Positions 3,201 to 45,196 of a stretch of DNA of 45,324 nucleotides are shown here, in pieces. Below the pieces are notes generated by a model. That model was not told the origin of the DNA and searched no databases. It saw only the letters and a program-made list of their open reading frames with translations. How positions within the stretch are numbered: the stretch's first letter is position 1; every line of letters begins with the position of its first letter. Where the stretch lies: positions 1 to 45,324 of the forward strand of contig JAMDHS010000127.1 in the NCBI GenBank assembly GCA_029717555.1, written 5' to 3'. This DNA comes from Peribolospora baueri (lineage: Eukaryota). Both the position numbers and the translations under genes were made by a program.

Positions 3201-5082
3201 ATCAACGCTCTGCACGTGCCGGTAAGTGACGTTGAGGACGCCGAGGTACTGCGGGATAAAGTCGAGCAGTTCGGGATGATCGCGCTCCACGGCCTCATAA
3301 AACTGGTTTTCGCGGCTGACGAGCGGCTGGGGGGTAGTTGAGCGAAGGAGGAAAAGAGTGAGACGCTAAAAAAAAAAGAAAGAAAACAAAAACCTCTTCT
3401 CTCACCTTGCAAACGGCACGTCGCGAAAAGCGAAAGACCGTATGGTGTCCACCAACCTGGTTGTCAAAAGGCTGGAGCTGAACCGCCGGGAGTGCGTCTG
3501 GCGGAGTCGAAGCGTTGTCCGCCGCCGCCACCGTCGCGGCCCCTGCCGCCGACGCCGACGCCGCCGCTTGCCCGAACCCGCCGGCACGGTAACGGTCATC
3601 TTCGGTCATCTCGCTCTTCGCTTCCGTCGTATCCTCGTCCAAATCCAGCTGGTAATCATAATCGTCCGAGCCGTACGTTGAGCCGACGTCGTCATCACCA
3701 TTCTCCGTAAAATCCGTCTCGTCGGTCGAGTCCGTGTATTCTGCGCTGTCCTCGTACTCCTCATCACCGTAGTAGGGCGTGGCGGCGGTCTCGGCGGTGA
3801 GAGCGTCACAAGTCGTCGGAGAGGCGGAAGGAAGGACGTAGGAAGAATGCCTGGGGTCGGACGCAAGTGGCGCGGCGGCGTGGTCGTGGTCGTGGTCGTG
3901 GTCGTCCTCGACGCTCCTCCTCCCCCTCGACCAAGGCCGGCCTTCATCGACGACGTCGGCTCGCGCTTTGCCCTTGGAAAGTGCCTTGGACGGGGAGGAA
4001 GCCTGGCCTGGGGACGGCAACGGCACCAAGCGCGGTTTCGACCTGGATCGCGACAGTTCGCCACCATTGTTGTCCTCCTCTTTCTCCTTTTCCTTTTCCT
4101 TTTCCTTCTCCTCCTCCTCCTCTTCCTTCTTCTCTTTCTCCTTCTCCTTACCGGTAGGCTTCTCCTTCTCCTTACCGGTCGGCCTCCTCGACCGTGACCG
4201 ACGGAGGCCACCGGTTTCCACGGCCTGGCCTTCGGCGGCGGGAATGACGTTGGCGGGCAAGTTGGCCTCCTTGAAGAGCTGGAGGCTCACAGAGGCCTTC
4301 CTGCCCGAGGACACCATCGCGGGGGGAAGCATGAGCTCCTCCTCCTCCTCGTCCAGCCCCGTCTCGGAGACGGCAAAGCTGTCGTACCCGCTCTCCTTCC
4401 CCGACGCTGCCCCTCCGTTGGCCGAGGTTGGGCTCAATGTCGTCGTCGCTGCTCTTTGCTGGTCGGCCGTGCCGGCGCTGGCGGCGGTGGACGCGAAGCG
4501 GGCACGTTGGTCGACGCGAGGACTTTGGGAGGGCCTCGAGTGGGAGCGACGAGCGAAGGAGGATCGGGAAGGGGAGGAGAGGGTGGACGTGGGAGACGGG
4601 TGAAGAAAGATCTCTGTCGTCGGCTCTTGGACGAGGCCCATGTTGGTGGACAGCGCGCCGTTCCGGCGCTGCTGACCGGACGAAGAACCCTCTCCGCTGT
4701 CCTTGACGCCGGAAGCGGTGGCGGGACCGGTGCGAGCGGCGCCGGCGCCGGCAGCGCCAAAGGACACCTTGAACGCCTTGCCCGGCTTGCCGGAGCTGCT
4801 GACCTCTGCGCGCTCGATCTGGCGCTCCCAGCCGTGCCTGGGATCGGAGGCGCTGAAGGAGAGACGCTTGCGCCCTTCGAGGTTGGGCGACATCAGGGGT
4901 GATACATGACCATGGGAGAGGAGGGTGGGAGAGGACGCGGTGGGATCGGGGGCGCGGTAATGGGGTGGGAGGCAGACGTGCAAGGCGGAGGTGGACGGGT
5001 TGGAGGAGGGAGAGGGATGCCAGATCGGAGGGGTGGGCGAACTGCAGAGGAGAGGCGGCTCGCCGTCACCGGCCTTCGACAT
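261..5082 (-). CDS. KCS1: Inositol hexakisphosphate kinase (IPK superfamily, Kcs1-like), ~1543 aa, 3 exons
   Basis: Exons 5082-3406, 3326-1380 and 1268-261 joined in phase 0 by GTGAG..CAG introns. Motifs: [30 protein letters not shown] (PxxxDxKxG), [25 protein letters not shown]. Confidence 0.93.
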
Positions 5083-6388
5083 GGGCTGTAGAGACGAAAG
5101 GGAGGGGTGAAGGATGGCCGACGGGAAGGAGGATGGTTGGTCTATCTGAAGATTATGCTGATCGTGTTGTTGCCGTGGCTGCCGGTGGCTAGTGCGCCAC
5201 TAGACGGAATGGAGACAAGCGAGAAGAAAAAACCACGTTGGGCAAGAGGACGAGAGGGGAGGCAGGCGGAGGGAATGGATAGATGGGGGGATGGCCGTTG
5301 GCCGACGCTGTTGTTGTGCGGTGTTATCGTCGAGGCGGGCGACGGCGGGTGGGAAGGCGTGGACAAATTTTGTCCGTGTTTCGTGCTGGCGCTGGTGGCG
5401 CTTTGGGCGTCTAGGACGCAAGAAGGGGGGAGTGGCGCCAAGGGGGGAGGGAGGGAGGTGGAGATAAGGCGGAGGAGCGGGGCGGCGAGGGCGGGGGAGG
5501 AAGGGTTGTCGGGATGGTGGTGGGGAGGAAGTCGGTCGGCGGTGGCGGCGGTGGTGAGAAGAAGGGGATGATGGCGATGGTGATGGCGATGGTGATGGCG
5601 ATACTCGCGAGGCGTTGGCGGACGGAGCGCAGTGGAGCGGATGCGGGCGTGGAGACGAGCACGAGCGCGACGAGCACGAGTGGACGGCGTCGGTTGAGAT
5701 ATGTGTCTACGTTTGTGTGTCTATCTGCGTATGTCAGTCTTTGTCTGTCTCCTTTCCTTTTCTTCCTTGTCTGTCCGCTGTCACGTCCTTCCGCCGCCGA
5801 GATAGCCGCCGCCGCCCGTCACGGCCACGGTCACAACCACAGTCACGACACGGTCACAACCACGGATGGTCACGTTGTGCCGCGACAAACGGACCGGATG
5901 CGGAATCGGTCGGTTGAAATTCCCAGCCAAGATCAGACAAGACAAGACTTGACAAGTTGATACAGTCGAGAATAGTCGAGGCAGTCCGAGGTCGAGGAGG
6001 AAGAGAGAGAGGCTGTCAAGAATAAAAAAACAAACACACGCCATCTCTCCCTCTCCGGCCTCTCTGTCTCCCCCCGTCCACGTTCTACCCCTGCACGCCT
6101 TCCTTCCATTCCCACGTACGTACGTCCTGCCTCGTGCGTGATGGATGACTAGAATCGATGGATGAATGGATAGGCGAGGGCTCAGACGACGATCGACGTA
6201 CACGTGCGCAGACCGCCAAGGACAAGGGGCCGCCCACCCCCACCACCGACGACGGATGCGAACACGGCCTCCCACCCGTGGCGTTCCATCCAACCCCATT
6301 ATACATGCAGTCCGTCATGGGTGCGCGACGCCGAACGAGATATATACAAACCGCGCCCACCGGACCGTCCAGTGCAGCCATGGCAGTT

Positions 6389-6394
6389 AGATGG

Positions 6395-6428
<34 letters not shown>

Positions 6429-6460
6429 AGATGGATGGATAGATAGATAGATAGATAGGC
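6389..6460. repeat. Compound (GATG)n/(GATA)n microsatellite
   Basis: atggatggatggacggatgg...gatagatagatagatag; related tracts at ~6877-6896 and ~31138-31165. Confidence 0.9.
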
Positions 6461-7518
6461 AAGAGAGACGACAGATAGATATAGCCCGGCGGCTAAGCTG
6501 GCGGAAACTCGGCCTCCGCGCTCAGTCAGCCCGCAAGGTGGGGCCCGGCGGGCGGGCGGGGCGCGCCTTTGCGACGGACATGGACGGCCACGGCCTCCCA
6601 GCCCAGCCCCGCCCTGTCTCACTCACTCACCTCCCGTTACAGATAGATGGATATAGATGGACGGATTTTTTTGTTAGGCAGACAGACAGACAGGCAGACA
6701 AGCAAGACCAGATAGTGGAGCACGACGGCAACCGGATAAGAGCGCCGTGCTATCGGCGTCAAGACGGACGGGACGGACGGGACGGATGGACGTATGAACG
6801 CATACCTTCCGTCCTTCCTTCCATCACGCCGGCGCCTCCCCCAGTCCAAATGAATGCGCGCCGGACGAACGAACGGATGGATGGATGGATGGATGGCACA
6901 GGAAAGATAAAGGAAAGAGAGAAGAGATTCGACCGCCCTGCTCTCCCTCGTCCACCTTGCTAAACCCTCTCGCGAACGGTTAAAATCGCCCTCCAGGCGG
7001 CCCCCATCGCTCTTGACGGCTCCTTCGGCGCGAGGGAGATGAGGGAGATGAAACGTTGGGATCCTATTCGTATCGTAATCGTTTTCGTCCGTACGTACGT
7101 GCACCACGCTTCCTGACCCGTAACATGGACAACAAAGGACAGACCAACGGAAAGACAGACAAGAAGAGAGGGGAGAAGAAATAACGATACGAGGCGGAGA
7201 AGAGAAAGCGAAAAAGAGACCGGGCAAGATGAACAAGCGGATGAGAAGGGAAAGTTCCTGGAGACGGTGTATGGACTGAAAGGAAGAGGGAGATAACTGA
7301 TGCGACAGATGCGACCGAGGTGGGATGAGACCGAAGGAGAGAGAGTGTGTGCATGGGACAGGGTGGGGTGGGACACTGGACCGGTCGGATGCTTGTCGAG
7401 CGAGGAAGAAAGAGGCGCAGTGGACCGCTGCCAGTGGGAATGAAGGATGGCTACGGCGGGCGGCGCCATGGGCGGACGACGAAGAGTCAGACAGACAACG
7501 GGATGGCAAAGGCCACTC

Positions 7519-8916
7519 CTACTTCTTGTTGAGTTCCGCCATCAATTGCTGCATACCGAGAGAGAAAGGACGGACGCTCGTGAGCCGGTGACAAATAGCG
7601 ATATGATAGTCTCACCACCACCTCAGCCGCTTGGCCACTCACTTGGATCCTGTCGCTCAAAGGCCCGCTCACCACAGGAGGCGCCACGGCAGCCGGGGGG
7701 GGCACGGCCATCAAAGGCACGTCGACCGACCCTCCGCTCTTCCCGAGGAACGCCTTGAGCGCCTCCGCGTCCGCCTTCCTCTGCGCCTCCTCGCCATTTC
7801 GGACGCCCATGCCCATGTTCACGAGCCGCGACATGATGGACGGCGGGAAGACGTTCCTCTGCCTCAGTTCGATGACCGCCGGTACAAGCTTGGGAGGCTT
7901 GCCGTTCGCCTGCCACCCTTCGAACCCTCTCTCAAACGTGATCATCAACTTGCGCTGCAACGCCACACCCGACAAGCCCTCCGGAGCCCGGTACCAGTCC
8001 AACGCGGCCACCAGCTTGACCGCCAACAGGCCGTAGCTCTCGATCTCCGCCGTGTCGGCGCCGGCCCGCGTCATGCGCTCGTAGAACGCGTCGCACACCG
8101 GACGGAACAGCGCCGGCTCGCGGTACGTCCACAGCCGCGCCGCGATCGCCGCCGCTTGGGCGCCCGTGTGGTCCGCGTTGCGATCTTTGGCCGGCTTGGA
8201 CTCGAACGTCTTGAAGGGCGCGAGGAGATAGTCGATCGCCACTCGAGACACGTTGGCCAAGATGTCCTCCTCGCTGCACGGCGGTGGCTTCTTCGGTTCC
8301 ACTTTCTTCGGTTCCTCTTTCTTTGGCTCCTCCTTCTTCGGTTCCTCCTTCTTCGGTTCCTCCTTCTTCGGTTCCTCCTTCTTCGGCTCTTCCTTCTTCG
8401 GCTCCTCCTTTGGCATAAGGAGATAAGCGGCTAGAGCGCCCACCGCGGCGATGAGGAGGAAGAGGAGAAAGACTGACATCCGGCGACGACGTTGCATGAC
8501 GACGAATAGGCGCAAAAGAGAGGAGAATGAGCAGCGCCCAGACAGTTAGTCGATTGACCCTTTCCTCCTCCAGCGAAGCGAAAGGCGAAAAGATGGGCAC
8601 ACTTACGCCAAGTCTGCCTGAAAAGCCAGATGAAGAACCCTCCACCGTAGTACGACGCCCACCCACCGCCTCCATATATGGGGTACATCATCGGTTGCGG
8701 TTGCGGCGGCGGCGGCGGAGGAGGCGGCTGTTGAGGGTGCTCGTACACGGAGAAGAGCCGGCCAAAACCCATCCCACCCATCCCTCCCATCCCTCCCATC
8801 CCTCCCATCCCTCCCATCCCTCCCATCCCTCCTTGCGGGTAGCCCCAGCCCCAACCCCAAGGACTGCCACCTGCGTAAGCTTGTCCGCCCCACCCCCAGC
8901 CCCATGAAGAGAACAT
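7519..8916 (-). CDS. Uncharacterised single-pass membrane protein, ~389 aa: WG/GGM-rich N-terminus, TM helix, (KKEEP)n linker, MIF4G-like helical domain
   Basis: Exons 8916-8607, 8472-7643 and 7548-7519. Intron 1 has GTAAGT, an ACTAAC branch site and the first downstream CAG; intron 2 is GTGAGT..GCTCAC..CAG. Both joins are in frame (..RQTW-LFLLFLLIAAVGALAAYLL..; ..DRIQ-QLMAELNKK*). Confidence 0.75.
8288..8412 (-). repeat. Coding 15-bp tandem repeat, 8 units encoding KKEEP (one KKVEP)
   Basis: Repeats of cttcttcggttcctc with synonymous variants on the + strand. Confidence 0.95.
8769..8832 (-). repeat. Coding 9-bp tandem repeat encoding (GGM)n
   Basis: (cccatccct)n on the + strand; GGMGGMGGMGGMGGMGGMG on the - strand. 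Confidence 0.95.
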
Positions 8917-9956
8917 GAGTGGTGGTTGCGGATCCTAAGAGGACGAGGGAAGGATCGGAAGCGGTGAAGATGGGTCTTCTTAACTCGAGCAAGCGGTGAT
9001 CAGAGGGTGTCCGAGGATGCGAGCCGCCGCCTCGACGGGGACTAGTGGGAAAGTCGGCGGAGGCCGAGAAGACGAAGGGAGAAAGAAGTGCGCCAAACAA
9101 AATGCCTGGTATAGATGCCGCACGAAAAGTGAATCGGTGCTGAACCGGTCAGCAAGGTCAAAAACTCGGGTGGAGTGAAAAAACTGCCGCGATGTCGCCG
9201 GCAAGAGAAGCAAGACGATTGCACGAAAAGGAGTGCGCGAAGAAGAGCGAAGGAAGTGGGGAAGGCAAGGCTGGGGTATGTATGCGCGTAGCTGGCCAGT
9301 CGAGGGGTAAAGGATGACAGGCCAGCAAAACTGACGAAGCGAGGCGGACGGAGCGAGGCGGATAGAGGGGGAGGTGAGGGAAGGAGGGAGAGCGATAGGG
9401 AGAGATGGGGAGAGGCGAGAAAAGAACGCTGTCGCTCGCGTCTTGTCGCGACGGCGTCCAAACCCTGTTGTTGGCCGATCATCTACGCACTCCGTCCTCG
9501 ATCATCTCTATCTAGCTACCACCTTCTATCGCCGCACATCATCCGAGCAGATCCGCCCGTCGTCAAGATTGCAGCAAGCGGGGGAAACCGAGCCTACCAT
9601 TGCAGGGAGCGACCCCGTCCGATGAACTCGCCCAGCTTGTATTTTGGCTGCCGTCCATATTGCTGTCTGGCTGCCCGCTATGTTCGCGACCGCACTTCAG
9701 ATCGTCTGGGAAAATGCCAGTACGCCATCTTCAGTTTTTATAGTCTACTCCCGTGCTCCACTTCATACGGCTGGCGCAAATGATGAAGAGAGCTCATTTC
9801 CACAGCTTCCGGGAGAGAGAGAGAAAGACGAGCCTCCCGGCAACGATCCAGGTATCTGGCTGCACACCAGCATACACATGGAGGGCGTGGAGGGGAAGAA
9901 AAATGCAGTAGTGGATCTCTTTCTAAAACCGTCTTCTGCGTAATCTACATAGAGGT

Positions 9957-10030
9957 CATCCATCTAGTCATCTATTTGATCATCCATATATCTGGTCATC
10001 TATCCGGCCATCTATCTAGTCATCTGTCTA
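9957..10030. repeat. Degenerate ~12-bp minisatellite (CATCTATCTAGT-like, 6 units) abutting the transporter stop codon
   Basis: catccatctagt / catctatttgat / catccatatatctggt / catctatccggc / catctatctagt / catctgtcta. Confidence 0.75.
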
Positions 10031-13000
10031 CTCCTTGTGCTCGATAGTAATCTCATTCGGACGATCCTCCACGTCGTCCTCCTTCTTTCCTTTGCCAGTT
10101 CCGACACCGTCAGCGCCCACGTTGTCTTTCTCAGAGTCGGACAAGTCCCTGCGTTGAACGACCATCTTGCCGTCGTCCGAAGGCTGACCGGGTCCGGAAC
10201 CGGATTTGCCGGAAATCTGACAGACGTAGGAGGTCCACTGGCGCGTGGGGACGCGGGCCTCGAGCATCTCGTTGATCTCTTCGAGCGTTCGGCCTATCGT
10301 TTCAGGAATGTAGAAGTCTGCAAGGGCGAACGAAGTCGGAGCCAGGAAAGCAGATCAATAAGACTCGGTCGCGGAAGGCTCTTGTGGCCAGATAGAAGAT
10401 CCACCGGTTCGAACCGACGTGACTGAGGGGTAGGGGCCCTCACAGACAAAAAGCATGGCGATAACCGTTCCGCCGGCGTAGATGAAGCCTACCATGGCGT
10501 TCAAATTGGCCTCGCCTGGGTCGAACCTGATCGAATAGCGGTAGTGAGGTCGAGGTGTCGGTCAACAGCATCACAGAGGCGTCAAAAACAAATCGCAGAC
10601 GCACAAGTAGGGCAAGGTGAACGTGACGGCCCACGCGCAGACCCAGAAGCAGGCAGTCCCAAGAGACATGATCCTAAGGTTGACGATGCGCGCAAGCCGA
10701 GAGGATAAAAGTTAGGCCGACGCTATACAGGCAAATCCTTGTGTTATCGCACACGCGCGGGCCATCCTCACCTGTTCCTGTTCTTTCCAACGGTCAACTC
10801 GGTAGCGACGACCCACGCAAGCGGGCCCCAAGCGAGGTTGAAGAAGAAGACGTAAAGCTAGCGGGCCACAGAGGCGAACGAGCGCAATACCGAGCCAGTT
10901 GTCACCAGGCAATGAAATCGTCTATCCTCTACCGTCCTCACACTCACCATAATCATAGCAGCGATGACATTGGACTGGGCAGCCGTTCGCTCACCCTCAG
11001 GGACGATGCCGACGCCTCCGCAGACGAGGAGACATCCTGCCATCACCGCCGAGGTCCACAGGAGCAATGGACGGCGACCGAGCCGGTTTACGAGGAAGAA
11101 AGAGCAGATGACGCCGACGACTTCGATGATGTCCTGTGTGGACCAAAGTAAGAAGGACACCAAGAGATGGAGACCAAGATCAGCAAAGCGAAGCACCGAC
11201 GGGAGAAAACACACGATACGTACGACGACAATCGTAATGGTGAATTCGTTTGCGATTCCGACCGCTTTGAGCTGGCACGAACGCAAACAGATAGGAAAAA
11301 ATGAGCGACAACGAAAGAGAGATGCGCGTAATTAAGCCTGTGCCCTCCTTCGCGGTATATCTAAAGCCCCATCTCAGCTGGCGAAAGCCACAAGAGATCA
11401 GGGTGACACTACTGCCACTCACGAACTGAACATTTGATAATCACCACGGCCATTCACCGAACGGTCAAAATGTAGTCAAAGGGAAACATGGATAATTGGG
11501 AGCAAAAAAGTCAACAACGAGAGCGAAAGGGAGTCGTGTCTCCAGTGCTATTGGAGACTTGCCTTCGTCGTATAGGAGAAGATGAACTGAACCCCTCCGA
11601 TTTGTTGACAGATCAAAATCCCCAGGCCGCAAATGAACCGCCTTCTTTGCGTCCCCTGGAAAAGGGTACCCCACCCTCCCTCCCCACTACTCTCCATCTC
11701 GTCTCTCCTCGCAGCTTGGAAGGTGTCCATCTCGTGCTGGACCACCAGTTCCCTTTGCCCCGGCTCGTAGCCCTTGCAGATGCGCTCAAGGGCGCGAAGG
11801 GCATCAGAGTCGCGCATTTTGGAGATGTACCAACGGGGAGACTCGGGGATGAAGAGGAGCCCGACGAGGATGGCGACGATGAAGACGAGATTGATCCCGA
11901 TGGGAATACGGTATGCAGCCGTGTTGGTCAGGTCTTTGCTACCTTGATTGACGCAAGCTCCGATGACCTAAGGGGAGGAGCGGGGGAGTCGGAGCAGGAG
12001 GGAAAGGGGTCGTAAAGGGGGGCGTAGAAAGAGACGAAAACACACATCAGAGAAGAGATCAACTTAGTTCGAAGAGTTCGACAGCCTTCTCGAAATGGAA
12101 ATGAGGAAGCTGAATGCTCGATCCGCACCTGGCCAATAGCGAGCAGCAACTGCCAAGACGACACCACGGACCCACGGATGGCGGTGGGAGGTACTTCTGA
12201 AAGGTAGAGCGGAACGGCATTCGAGATGACGCCCACACCCATTCCAAGGATGGCGCGGCCAAGGCCGAGCAGGGGGACAGAACCAGCTAGGACGAGCTGT
12301 CGTGAGGGAGCCAAGTGAAAGAAGCCAAGAAAGGAACAAAAATGTCCAATGGTGAGACAACTGATCTGCCTATCCAGATACCGTCCCATTTGAGCTCCTT
12401 CCGCGAGCAGCTCACCTGCAACACAAATAGCAATGAGCACATCAGCGACCGTCAACCCAAATTCTTCTGGCCTCAGCCCCGGTGGTCCCACAGTCAACTC
12501 CTCACCTGCAAGATAACGCCAACAGTAATGAGCGCACAAGCGACCGTCAACCCAAGCTTCCTTCCACCCCAGTCCCCGACGGGCCCCGCCATGAGCGAGC
12601 CGATGACCTCTCCCGCCTGGACTATGGAGGTGAGCACGGACTGGATGTCTGACGAGAGTTGCTTCTCGCCTGTGGAGGTGTAAGTGTTGCCGTAGTCTTC
12701 GTTGAACCTGGCGAGAGCGAGACGTTGAAATGATTATGAAAAAAGAAAGAAAGTGAAGCAAGGTGAAGTAGGGGAAAACGAAGGCGGAGAAGGACATGTT
12801 ACCGTCGAGCAGTCGTCCGCTCACTTCTTCTGAGAGAGGATACCGGTGAAGTAGGTGCCTGCCGACCATGGTTGCGAGCAAGTGCGTAAGCCTCCAAGTC
12901 TATGCGAAATCCACAACCGCTTCCCTCCACTGACTGAGACTCCACGGCAAGATACCCCGTCTGAGCCGACAGCAGGGCCAACCTGGAAGCGACCTAGAAC

Positions 13001-13134
13001 GCACCATCATATCCGTAGGTAACAGCGCCGATGACGACGATGGCGCAATAGAACAGGGGCCTCGCGTTGGCCTTTGTGAAGAGCTTGGCGGTAACAGGGG
13101 AATCGCCGCTATTGGTCACCATTGCTCCACCCAT
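10028..13134 (-). CDS. MFS sugar porter family transporter, ~567 aa, 12 coding exons
   Basis: Exons 13134-13005, 12858-12825, 12707-12506, 12296-12129, 11967-11563, 11425-11423, 11271-11224, 11133-10948, 10857-10772, 10673-10605, 10526-10444 and 10317-10028 sum to 1704 nt in frame. Motifs: YGYDG, GDWGGRK, PLYLSEVPP..IRG, IPESPRW, QQIGG, LGRRPLLL, WGPLAW, IPETIGRTLEEI. Confidence 0.9.
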
Positions 13135-27228: not shown

Positions 27229-29888
<2,660 letters not shown>

Positions 29889-31357
29889 CGCTTCGGGTCG
29901 GAGTAGGGTAATCGGGTCGGCGGTGTTCTACGGCGGTTTGATGAAGGGCCGGATGGCAATTCACTCGAGTCGACGGGGAGGAAGGGAGGGAGGAAAGGTG
30001 AAAAGAGAGGAGGAGAAGGGGTTGGAGGAATGACGATAAGGTGGAGGAGGAACGGGGGATGGAAGAGCGACGGCGGAAGGAGACTCGGGGCGGGGGTAGT
30101 CAAGCGACGGGCGCGCGAAGAAGTGCCAATTGGAACGCGAAGGACGGCGTGGGTAGGGCGGTCGGGTGCTGCACTGGACGAGCCGGGCTCGAGCGACGGT
30201 CAGGATCGGCTGTAAGAGGACGGCGGAGACGGGCTGACGGACGGGGCTTGGCGGATGTGGTGTGTTTGTCTACGGCCGCTCGCAGATAGGATGGTAGTGG
30301 TGGCGGTGGTGGTGATGGTGGTGACGGTGAGAGCTCGACTCGACTCCACCCGCCACACGCGACCGCCAAGCGGTGACTGACCATCGACGGCTGATTTGAT
30401 TTGTGCGACCCTGACCCGACCTTCCTCCGCCCTTCTCTTCCGTCGCTGCCTCCTCGAAATAGCTTCGTCGTGTTTCGGCGCACACCGACTCCCTCCTCGT
30501 CTCTGTTGCAGTACAGCACAGAATAGCTCCACACTGACGTCGCCGTGACCGACGCCAGCAGACGAGACCAGCCAGTCATGCTCGGAAAGAGAGAGGGGTG
30601 CGGGCAAAGCTCCAGCGGTCTTGCTTCGGCGAACTCAGCCTGCGCCAGGCGGCATCGGCGTCCTGATCATTGCAACCGTAACCCTTGGCCCGGCAGAGGA
30701 GACGAGACGAGACGAGCAGAACACTTCCTTTCCTTCATCCACCGTCTTCCGACTCGCATCGAACCTCGCCGGCGAATCCACCATGGTTCACGCATGTGCA
30801 CATACATATACATGCTCGGCCCCAAATAGAGTGGGCCAACGGCAGGGGATGAATGGACGATGGATGGGGTCACGAGGCGCCGATTGCGCCTACCTCTTTC
30901 CGCACACACAAGACTTGAATGCCGAAAGCGAAAAGACGGTAGCGAGGGGAAGAGGCATTTGAAAAAAAAAAAAAAAAAGAGGTAGTTGGCATCTTCAAGA
31001 AGAGCGGAGACGGTGAAAACAAAAAGAGCAGGATGGAAAGTGTCTGGCCGACCGAGTCACGGAAAGGCACGCAGGATGTCAAAATCAAACTCGCGATGAG
31101 CCACCGCCCGCGTACGGAAACTGAACAGACGAGACAGGATAGATAGATGGATGGATGGGTGGATGGACACGAAGAAAAGGGAACGGACCAAGGGTCATTC
31201 CAAAAGTGAAAGGCGACGAGGTGAGATGATGGAGCTTTGGGCATCGCGGAGGAATAGCGACGACGACACACGTCTGCCATTCTTTTTTATCCTTTTTCTT
31301 TTCCCTTTCCGAACGACTCCAGCGGCTAAGCCGGCTCGCGCCTTAAACCTTCCTCCT

Positions 31358-45140: not shown

Positions 45141-45196
45141 NNNNNNNNNNNNNNNNNNNNNNNNNNNNNNNNNNNNNNNNNNNNNNNNNNNNNNNN
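45091..45196. other. 50-nt poly(T) followed by a 56-nt N assembly gap
   Basis: T at 45091-45140; N at 45141-45196. Confidence 0.95.

Follow-up and report, generated by a model that had tools for sequence, protein, structure and literature searches.

Does the third intron of a sugar porter gene, whose 209 nt can be read as two consecutive GT...AG units with no exon base between them, represent one intron or two, how did such an arrangement come about, and is it removed in one step or in two? These questions were addressed within a single stretch of DNA of 45,324 nt, analysed as a whole and referred to below as the window.

The host gene and the two units of its third intron

The gene and the elements on which the argument turns are as follows.

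10028..13134, - strand: host gene, an MFS sugar porter with 12 exons, 11 introns and 567 codons (gene model from coordinates, Pfam and homologs)
12506..12707, - strand: exon 3, 202 nt, ending ...TTGCAG at 12506 (sequence, blastp)
12297..12505, - strand: complete intron 3, 209 nt, longer than any of the gene's other ten introns (gene model, homolog alignments)
12416..12505, - strand: unit 1, 90 nt, with donor GTGAGG, branch-like motifs and acceptor TTGCAG (sequence)
12414..12417, - strand: AG/GT seam, the position of the zero-length exon, TTGCAG followed by GTGAGC (sequence)
12297..12415, - strand: unit 2, 119 nt, with donor GTGAGC and acceptor GACAG (sequence)
12129..12296, - strand: exon 4, 168 nt, starting CTCGTC at 12296 (sequence, Pfam, blastp)

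As modelled from the sequence, the coding region runs on the - strand from an ATG at 13134 to a stop that ends at 10028, giving a CDS of 1704 nt. The window is GC-rich and open frames are found everywhere in it, and a heuristic based on ORFs and GC3 chose wrong frames even at known junctions. The encoded protein is an MFS sugar porter (Pfam PF00083): the translations of exons 3, 4 and 5 match Sugar_tr with 38.2, 50 and 78.9 bits, all above the curated cut-off of 22.3 bits, and the match covers profile positions 35-93 on exon 3 and 101-151 on exon 4, where it begins at residue 6 of the exon. When the translation of exon 5 was employed as query, 83 homologous proteins at E <= 0.001 were recovered among 480 candidates. 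Since the top homologs are only about 60-62% identical and the named ones among them belong to the Ustilaginomycotina (Violaceomyces, Testicularia, Thecaphora and Tilletiaria), the host is, judged by its homologs, a basidiomycete-type sugar porter with no close relative in the protein collection searched.

One metagenome scan produced 23 loci that matched the translation of exon 4. Only two of these, L005 (566-987) and L003 (392-724), cover the parts homologous to both exon 3 and exon 4, and in both of these distant relatives (46% and 34% identity to exon 3, respectively) the two parts are contiguous, that is, there is no intron at the place of intron 3. The upstream part is absent from loci L001 and L002. 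The part homologous to exon 4 is itself broken in L005 and L002 by a gap of about 56 nt, which falls between query residues 27 and 28 and has the look of an intron in a different position.

Re-reading of the - strand found every element exactly where the original prediction had put it, with the donor at 12505, GCTGAT at 12446-12441, the seam at 12416/12415 and the end of the acceptor at 12297; the interval likewise measured 90 + 119 nt, as two abutting GT...AG units with zero exon bases between them. At the internal seam, the AG occupies 12417-12416 and the GT 12415-12414 of the - strand. The sequence YAG/GTRNG is present internally in this intron alone among the 11 introns of the gene and occurs 0 times in its CDS, and the placement of an acceptor YAG directly before a consensus donor inside an intron, which is the sequence hallmark of a zero-nucleotide exon, is found at 12416/12415. 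The arrangement had been held not to be a nested stwintron, and in the strict sense of the term rightly so: the units abut instead of nesting, and neither breaks into a splice element of the other, the two donors and the two acceptors all being intact.

The fate of the interval in the mature transcript can be deduced from related proteins. The blastp set comprised 22 homologs, of which 21 matched both exon translations while one (P0016) matched neither; in 21/21 the exon 4 match starts one residue after the end of the exon 3 match, and in a MAFFT alignment of the full-length model the join between exon 3 and exon 4 is gapless in 15/15 homologs. The clean protein join that had been predicted is thereby substantiated, and homology shows all 209 nt of intron 3 to be absent from the predicted mRNA. 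Retention of the 119 nt leads to a stop 42 codons after exon 3, and retention of the 90 nt, which is in frame, leads to a stop after 3 codons, an in-frame TGA being the fourth codon. The accompanying claim of a frameshift, by which both parts must be removed, was consequently right in substance, as either half-product is terminated early. A coding function of the 90 nt was also considered and is ruled out by this TGA together with the lack of an insertion in 15/15 homologs.

A duplicated exon-intron junction created the seam

Comparison of the interior of intron 3 with the end of exon 3 defined three further segments.

12501..12555, - strand: source of the duplication, comprising the final 50 nt of exon 3 and the donor GTGAG (local alignment, repeat families D1 and D2)
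12411..12460, - strand: diverged copy of the source segment, matching it at 43/50 positions (86%), with one 5-nt gap (local alignment)
12461..12500, - strand: spacer of 40 nt between the true donor and the copy, with no detectable source (alignments against shuffles, blastn)

The seam owes its existence to a local duplication that spanned the exon-intron junction: it forms the terminus of a 50-nt copy of the exon 3 end and donor, the alignment score of which lies far above that of shuffled sequences (52, compared to a shuffle mean of 16.1, sd 2.3 and maximum 28, with 0/1000 shuffles reaching 52). The original prediction had reported identical sequence at the true donor and the internal site and had guessed at an origin by duplication; the 11-nt TTGCAGGTGAG is indeed present at both 12511-12501 and 12421-12411, and the guess is supported and now extended from these 11 nt to the 50-nt copy of exon end and donor. 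It is highly improbable that the resemblance came about by chance, with the AG/GT produced by point mutation, or that it reflects a misassembled repeat: nothing was found in favour of either, the shuffles speak against the former, and the latter is countered by the 7 differing positions and one indel between the copies, which are unlike a collapsed or duplicated assembly.

When the window was searched for direct repeats no shorter than 30 nt and lying within 400 nt, 5 families were returned, among which the repeat of the exon 3 end is the sole one that is not of low complexity, the other 4 being low-complexity arrays; the copy and the exon 3 end appear as repeat families spaced 95 and 90 nt apart. 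A comparison of intron 3 with the window by short-word blastn found no source for its sequence other than the exon 3 end. Tandem Repeats Finder returned 0 rows for 12000-12900 because the repeat is too diverged and its copies are too few.

Other repetitive sequence was noted in the window. Microsatellites of the type (GATG/GATA)n lie at 6382-6460, 6860-6906, 31130-31176 and about 9940-10025, the last of these in the 3' UTR of the host gene just past the stop. Low-complexity arrays with periods of 9-15 nt at 4055-4172, 8273-8422 and 29608-29760 are CT-rich, TTCTTCGGTTCCTCC-like and GCTGGTGTT-like, and look like coding repeats. A run of N at 45141-45196 is an assembly gap or a masked stretch.

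The repeat does not extend in the 3' direction, where the sequences after the two GTGAGs score 12 compared to a shuffle mean of 13.3 (reached by 789/1000), nor in the 5' direction, where those upstream of the two TTGGG starts score 18 compared to 16.8 (reached by 361/1000). Neither the part of exon 3 lying upstream of the source nor the stretch that follows the second GTGAG is significantly similar to the spacer (12500-12461). In the reconstructed course of events, the last 50 nt of exon 3 plus GTGAG were copied 40 nt into intron 3; the end of the copy, TTGCAG/GTGAG, put a consensus donor right behind an acceptor-like YAG, and an ancestral intron of approximately 159 nt was converted into a compound one of 209 nt, made up of abutting units that measure 90 and 119 nt. 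A Rogers-type gain is marked by a direct repeat that places AGGT at either end of the new unit, and unit 1 bears this signature in the form of the identical 11-nt TTGCAGGTGAG, which lies inside the 86% identical copy; only 50 of the 90 nt of unit 1 can be aligned to the exon, and the spacer is unmatched in either tandem phase. The data fit a copy of approximately 50 nt inserted 40 nt downstream, and could also fit a tandem duplication with uneven decay. The copy was also considered as an alternative exon end and rejected, as it is 5 nt shorter and the frame is lost.

The seven mismatches of the copy cluster in its middle (P about 0.017, post hoc). No mismatch falls in the last 11 columns, and since this absence is not significant (chance P = 0.15), conservation at the seam does not detectably exceed that of the remaining copy and there is no sign of selection acting on it. 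It is possible, if somewhat doubtful, that the duplication is real and its seam nonetheless ignored, with the donor at 12505 pairing with a branch site and acceptor near 12297, one 209-nt lariat being formed and the copy representing neutral sequence in decay. The condition of the copy is consistent with such a fate, as it has lost the frame, differs from its source by 7 mismatches and a deletion of 5 nt, and displays no significant excess of conservation at the seam; furthermore, the 209 nt that would be excised at once are only 1.3x the length of the next longest intron of the gene (161 nt), and the removal of a compound interval in one step has been documented in Lipomyces starkeyi (PMC7138796).

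Splice signals and removal in one step or two

The reference set for the signals of the two units was formed by the host gene's own 11 introns. At 90 and 119 nt, both units fall within the range of 78-161 nt spanned by the ten remaining introns, of which two measure exactly 90 nt, and the donors GTGAGG (unit 1) and GTGAGC (unit 2) both occur at other introns of the gene, GTGAGC being the donor of intron 2. Pattern matching identified the branch-like motifs TTGAC, CTGAT and CTCAT in unit 1, at 36, 26 and 18 nt from its 3' end, the second being located as follows:

12441..12445, - strand: CTGAT, branch-like motif of unit 1, with its A at 12442, 26 nt from the seam (pattern match)

Only three matches to CTRAY were obtained in the scanned 3' parts of the gene's introns, namely this CTGAT, a CTGAT in intron 7 and a CTAAC in intron 9, and the bases of the exon source segment that align to CTGAT do not form the motif. 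In the tail of unit 1, 14/22 bases before the YAG are pyrimidines; unit 2 has 16/22 and a branch-like TTCAC at 12319-12315, again a pattern match, with its A 19 nt from the 3' end. Because both units possess a donor, a branch-like motif, a pyrimidine-rich tail, a YAG and a length typical of the gene, both would be spliceable by sequence and removal in two steps is plausible.

The donor sequence CAGGTGAG is encountered 7 times in the window compared to 1.9 expected, with 0/100 shuffles reaching 7; four of the copies lie outside the host gene and are only candidate donors. Predicted folds were unremarkable for the intron (z -1.11) and for the segment from exon 3 through the start of exon 4 (z +0.38). 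In the minimum-energy fold of the intron alone, its 5' end (GUGAGGAG...) pairs with the CU-rich stretch before the acceptor and so joins both ends of the 209 nt, with a z of -1.1, no better than shuffles. A U1-like 11-nt motif at 12625-12635 (- strand, exon 3) is complementary to both CAGGTGAG sites (10/11 and 9/10 pairs); this complementarity is probably due to chance, because the motif is unpaired with either donor in the minimum-energy fold.

These properties bear on the possibility that the seam is ignored. From -6 to +5 the internal donor is identical to the true one, and its hexamer serves intron 2, while nothing in the sequence or in the predicted structure hides it (fold z -1.1 and +0.4), and its use without any rescue would yield a product that ends 3 codons after exon 3. 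Since the internal donor matches the true donor over these positions and lies at a typical intron length (119 nt) from the acceptor, it is probably used by the spliceosome in a good share of transcripts. A transcript so processed would be rescued by removal of the remaining 90 nt in turn, because this remainder is itself a complete intron; if the 90 nt were removed first, the same donor context would be rebuilt at the seam. Two steps in either order, or a single excision, would thus all lead to the same mRNA, and any half-spliced product would carry an early stop.

Such a stop could also be the end rather than an intermediate of the process. In this alternative, which we consider distinctly unlikely, the internal donor is joined to the final acceptor and the 90 nt are retained with no two-step rescue, the outcome being an isoform targeted to NMD, either as noise or as a means of tuning the level of the transporter. 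The stop after 3 codons that follows from 90-nt retention is in keeping with this alternative, and alternative 5' splice sites coupled to NMD have been reported in S. pombe, in the passage on prp10 of bioRxiv 10.1101/226894. Against it stands that unit 1 has every signal of the host gene's introns, for which reason a retained unit 1 would be expected to be spliced, and no evidence for regulation was obtained.

The same transcript appears to contain a second case of closely spaced splice sites:

11423..11425, - strand: exon of 3 nt, TTC (needed to supply a Phe that is invariant in 15/15 aligned homologs)

It is preceded by the intron 11562-11426, of the GC-AG type with donor GCAAGT, and followed by the intron 11422-11272 with donor GTGAGT. 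If the model of this 3-nt exon is right, the organism already splices an acceptor and a donor only 3 nt apart, and because the exon is required for the invariant Phe it would constitute a precedent for near-zero-length splicing within the same transcript. A literature search on fungal 3-nt microexons found no relevant publication.

Taking the evidence together, we regard the matter as evenly poised as to whether the seam is used in a real share of productive splicing, with two steps taking place alongside or instead of one 209-nt excision. What counts against two-step use is that a single excision from the true donor gives the same mRNA and needs no internal site, that the distant L005 and L003 have no intron at this place, and that the seam lacks excess conservation. 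A more far-reaching form of the two-step reading, which we judge rather unlikely as a whole, would be that (i) the junction duplication bore, in one step, a new 90-nt intron abutting the old one; (ii) the gene now depends on two-step splicing at the seam; and (iii) the spliceosome, as the 3-nt exon would also indicate, routinely handles sites 0-3 nt apart. If true, this would represent a Rogers-type intron gain that creates a zero-nucleotide exon and would supply a natural mechanism for how recursive splice sites originate.

Significance and relation to known systems

Zero-nucleotide exons have been documented in very few short fungal introns, and the available portions of these accounts do not give their origin. 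In intron 3 the origin can be read from the sequence, as an exon end and donor copied into the intron. The geometry itself is already known from published fungal cases, and what is new here is the origin of the seam in a copy of a junction. If the seam is used, the locus would provide a natural example of a compound intron, or of a new unit, born in one mutational step with the protein unharmed. Annotation is unaffected because every route would lead to an identical mRNA; in practice, whenever a short intron contains an internal AG/GT, the possibility of a duplicated splice junction should be checked first.

The ratchet points of Drosophila and the RS sites of vertebrates are conserved sites in introns that span tens of kilobases, at which a YAG/GTRAGT seam restores a donor once the first step is complete. 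Intron 3 shares with them a seam that would regenerate the donor but differs in being only 209 nt in length.

The original prediction knew of no described case in short basidiomycete introns, but one exists: the 375-nt intron (210 + 165) of BOT1 in Cryptococcus neoformans undergoes recursive splicing at a zero-nucleotide exon, as established by spliceosome profiling (Burke et al., bioRxiv 10.1101/224170). Like BOT1, intron 3 is a short basidiomycete intron in which a single intron reads as two units at a 3'SS/5'SS pivot, with an mRNA devoid of both. The BOT1 case, in contrast, is backed by junction, branch and 3'-end profiling, whereas the two units of intron 3 are read from the DNA sequence; the units are shorter here (90 + 119), and the available part of the BOT1 account describes no duplication origin. 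In S. pombe, two instances of recursive splicing at zero-nucleotide exons have been reported, one of them in the 336-nt intron of SPNCRNA.445 (Chen et al., bioRxiv 10.1101/226894). There too a 3'SS adjoins a 5'SS inside a short fungal intron and the whole intron is removed, although the host is an ascomycete non-coding snoRNA host gene and the site is reported to be conserved across Schizosaccharomyces species.

Compound introns in Lipomyces offer a parallel with respect to duplication, as the duplication of donor elements has been proposed as the first step towards the [D] stwintrons sensu lato of this genus, and in L. starkeyi removal of the intervening sequence takes place in a single reaction or in two (PMC7138796). 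Stwintronisation in Lipomyces resembles the present case in that new splice sites appear inside an existing fungal intron with the involvement of duplication. The duplications described there measure 4-7 nt, with donors that are adjacent or nested and an outer donor disrupted by the internal intron, whereas in intron 3 the copied segment is 50 nt long and the donor, which is intact, directly follows an acceptor.

The potato RdRp gene is reportedly a case of intron birth by duplication of an AGGT segment (PMC4974935). That duplication of an AGGT-containing segment can act as a one-step source of introns has been shown experimentally (Hellsten et al. 2011, PMC3265369). In agreement with this model, a direct repeat provides the GT at one copy and the AG at the other, so that the ends of the intron exist from birth, and unit 1 is flanked by the same 11-nt TTGCAGGTGAG. 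The model differs from the present case in that it starts from an AGGT inside an exon and yields a free-standing new intron; the AGGT duplicated in the host gene was an existing exon-intron junction, and for this reason the new unit abuts the old intron. A further difference is that only 50 of the 90 nt are alignable here. A narrow literature search, which proves little, found no paper linking duplicated splice sites of an exon-intron boundary with tandem duplication or recursive splicing. Among the systems compared, intron 3 thus resembles BOT1 in its geometry and the duplication model in its origin.
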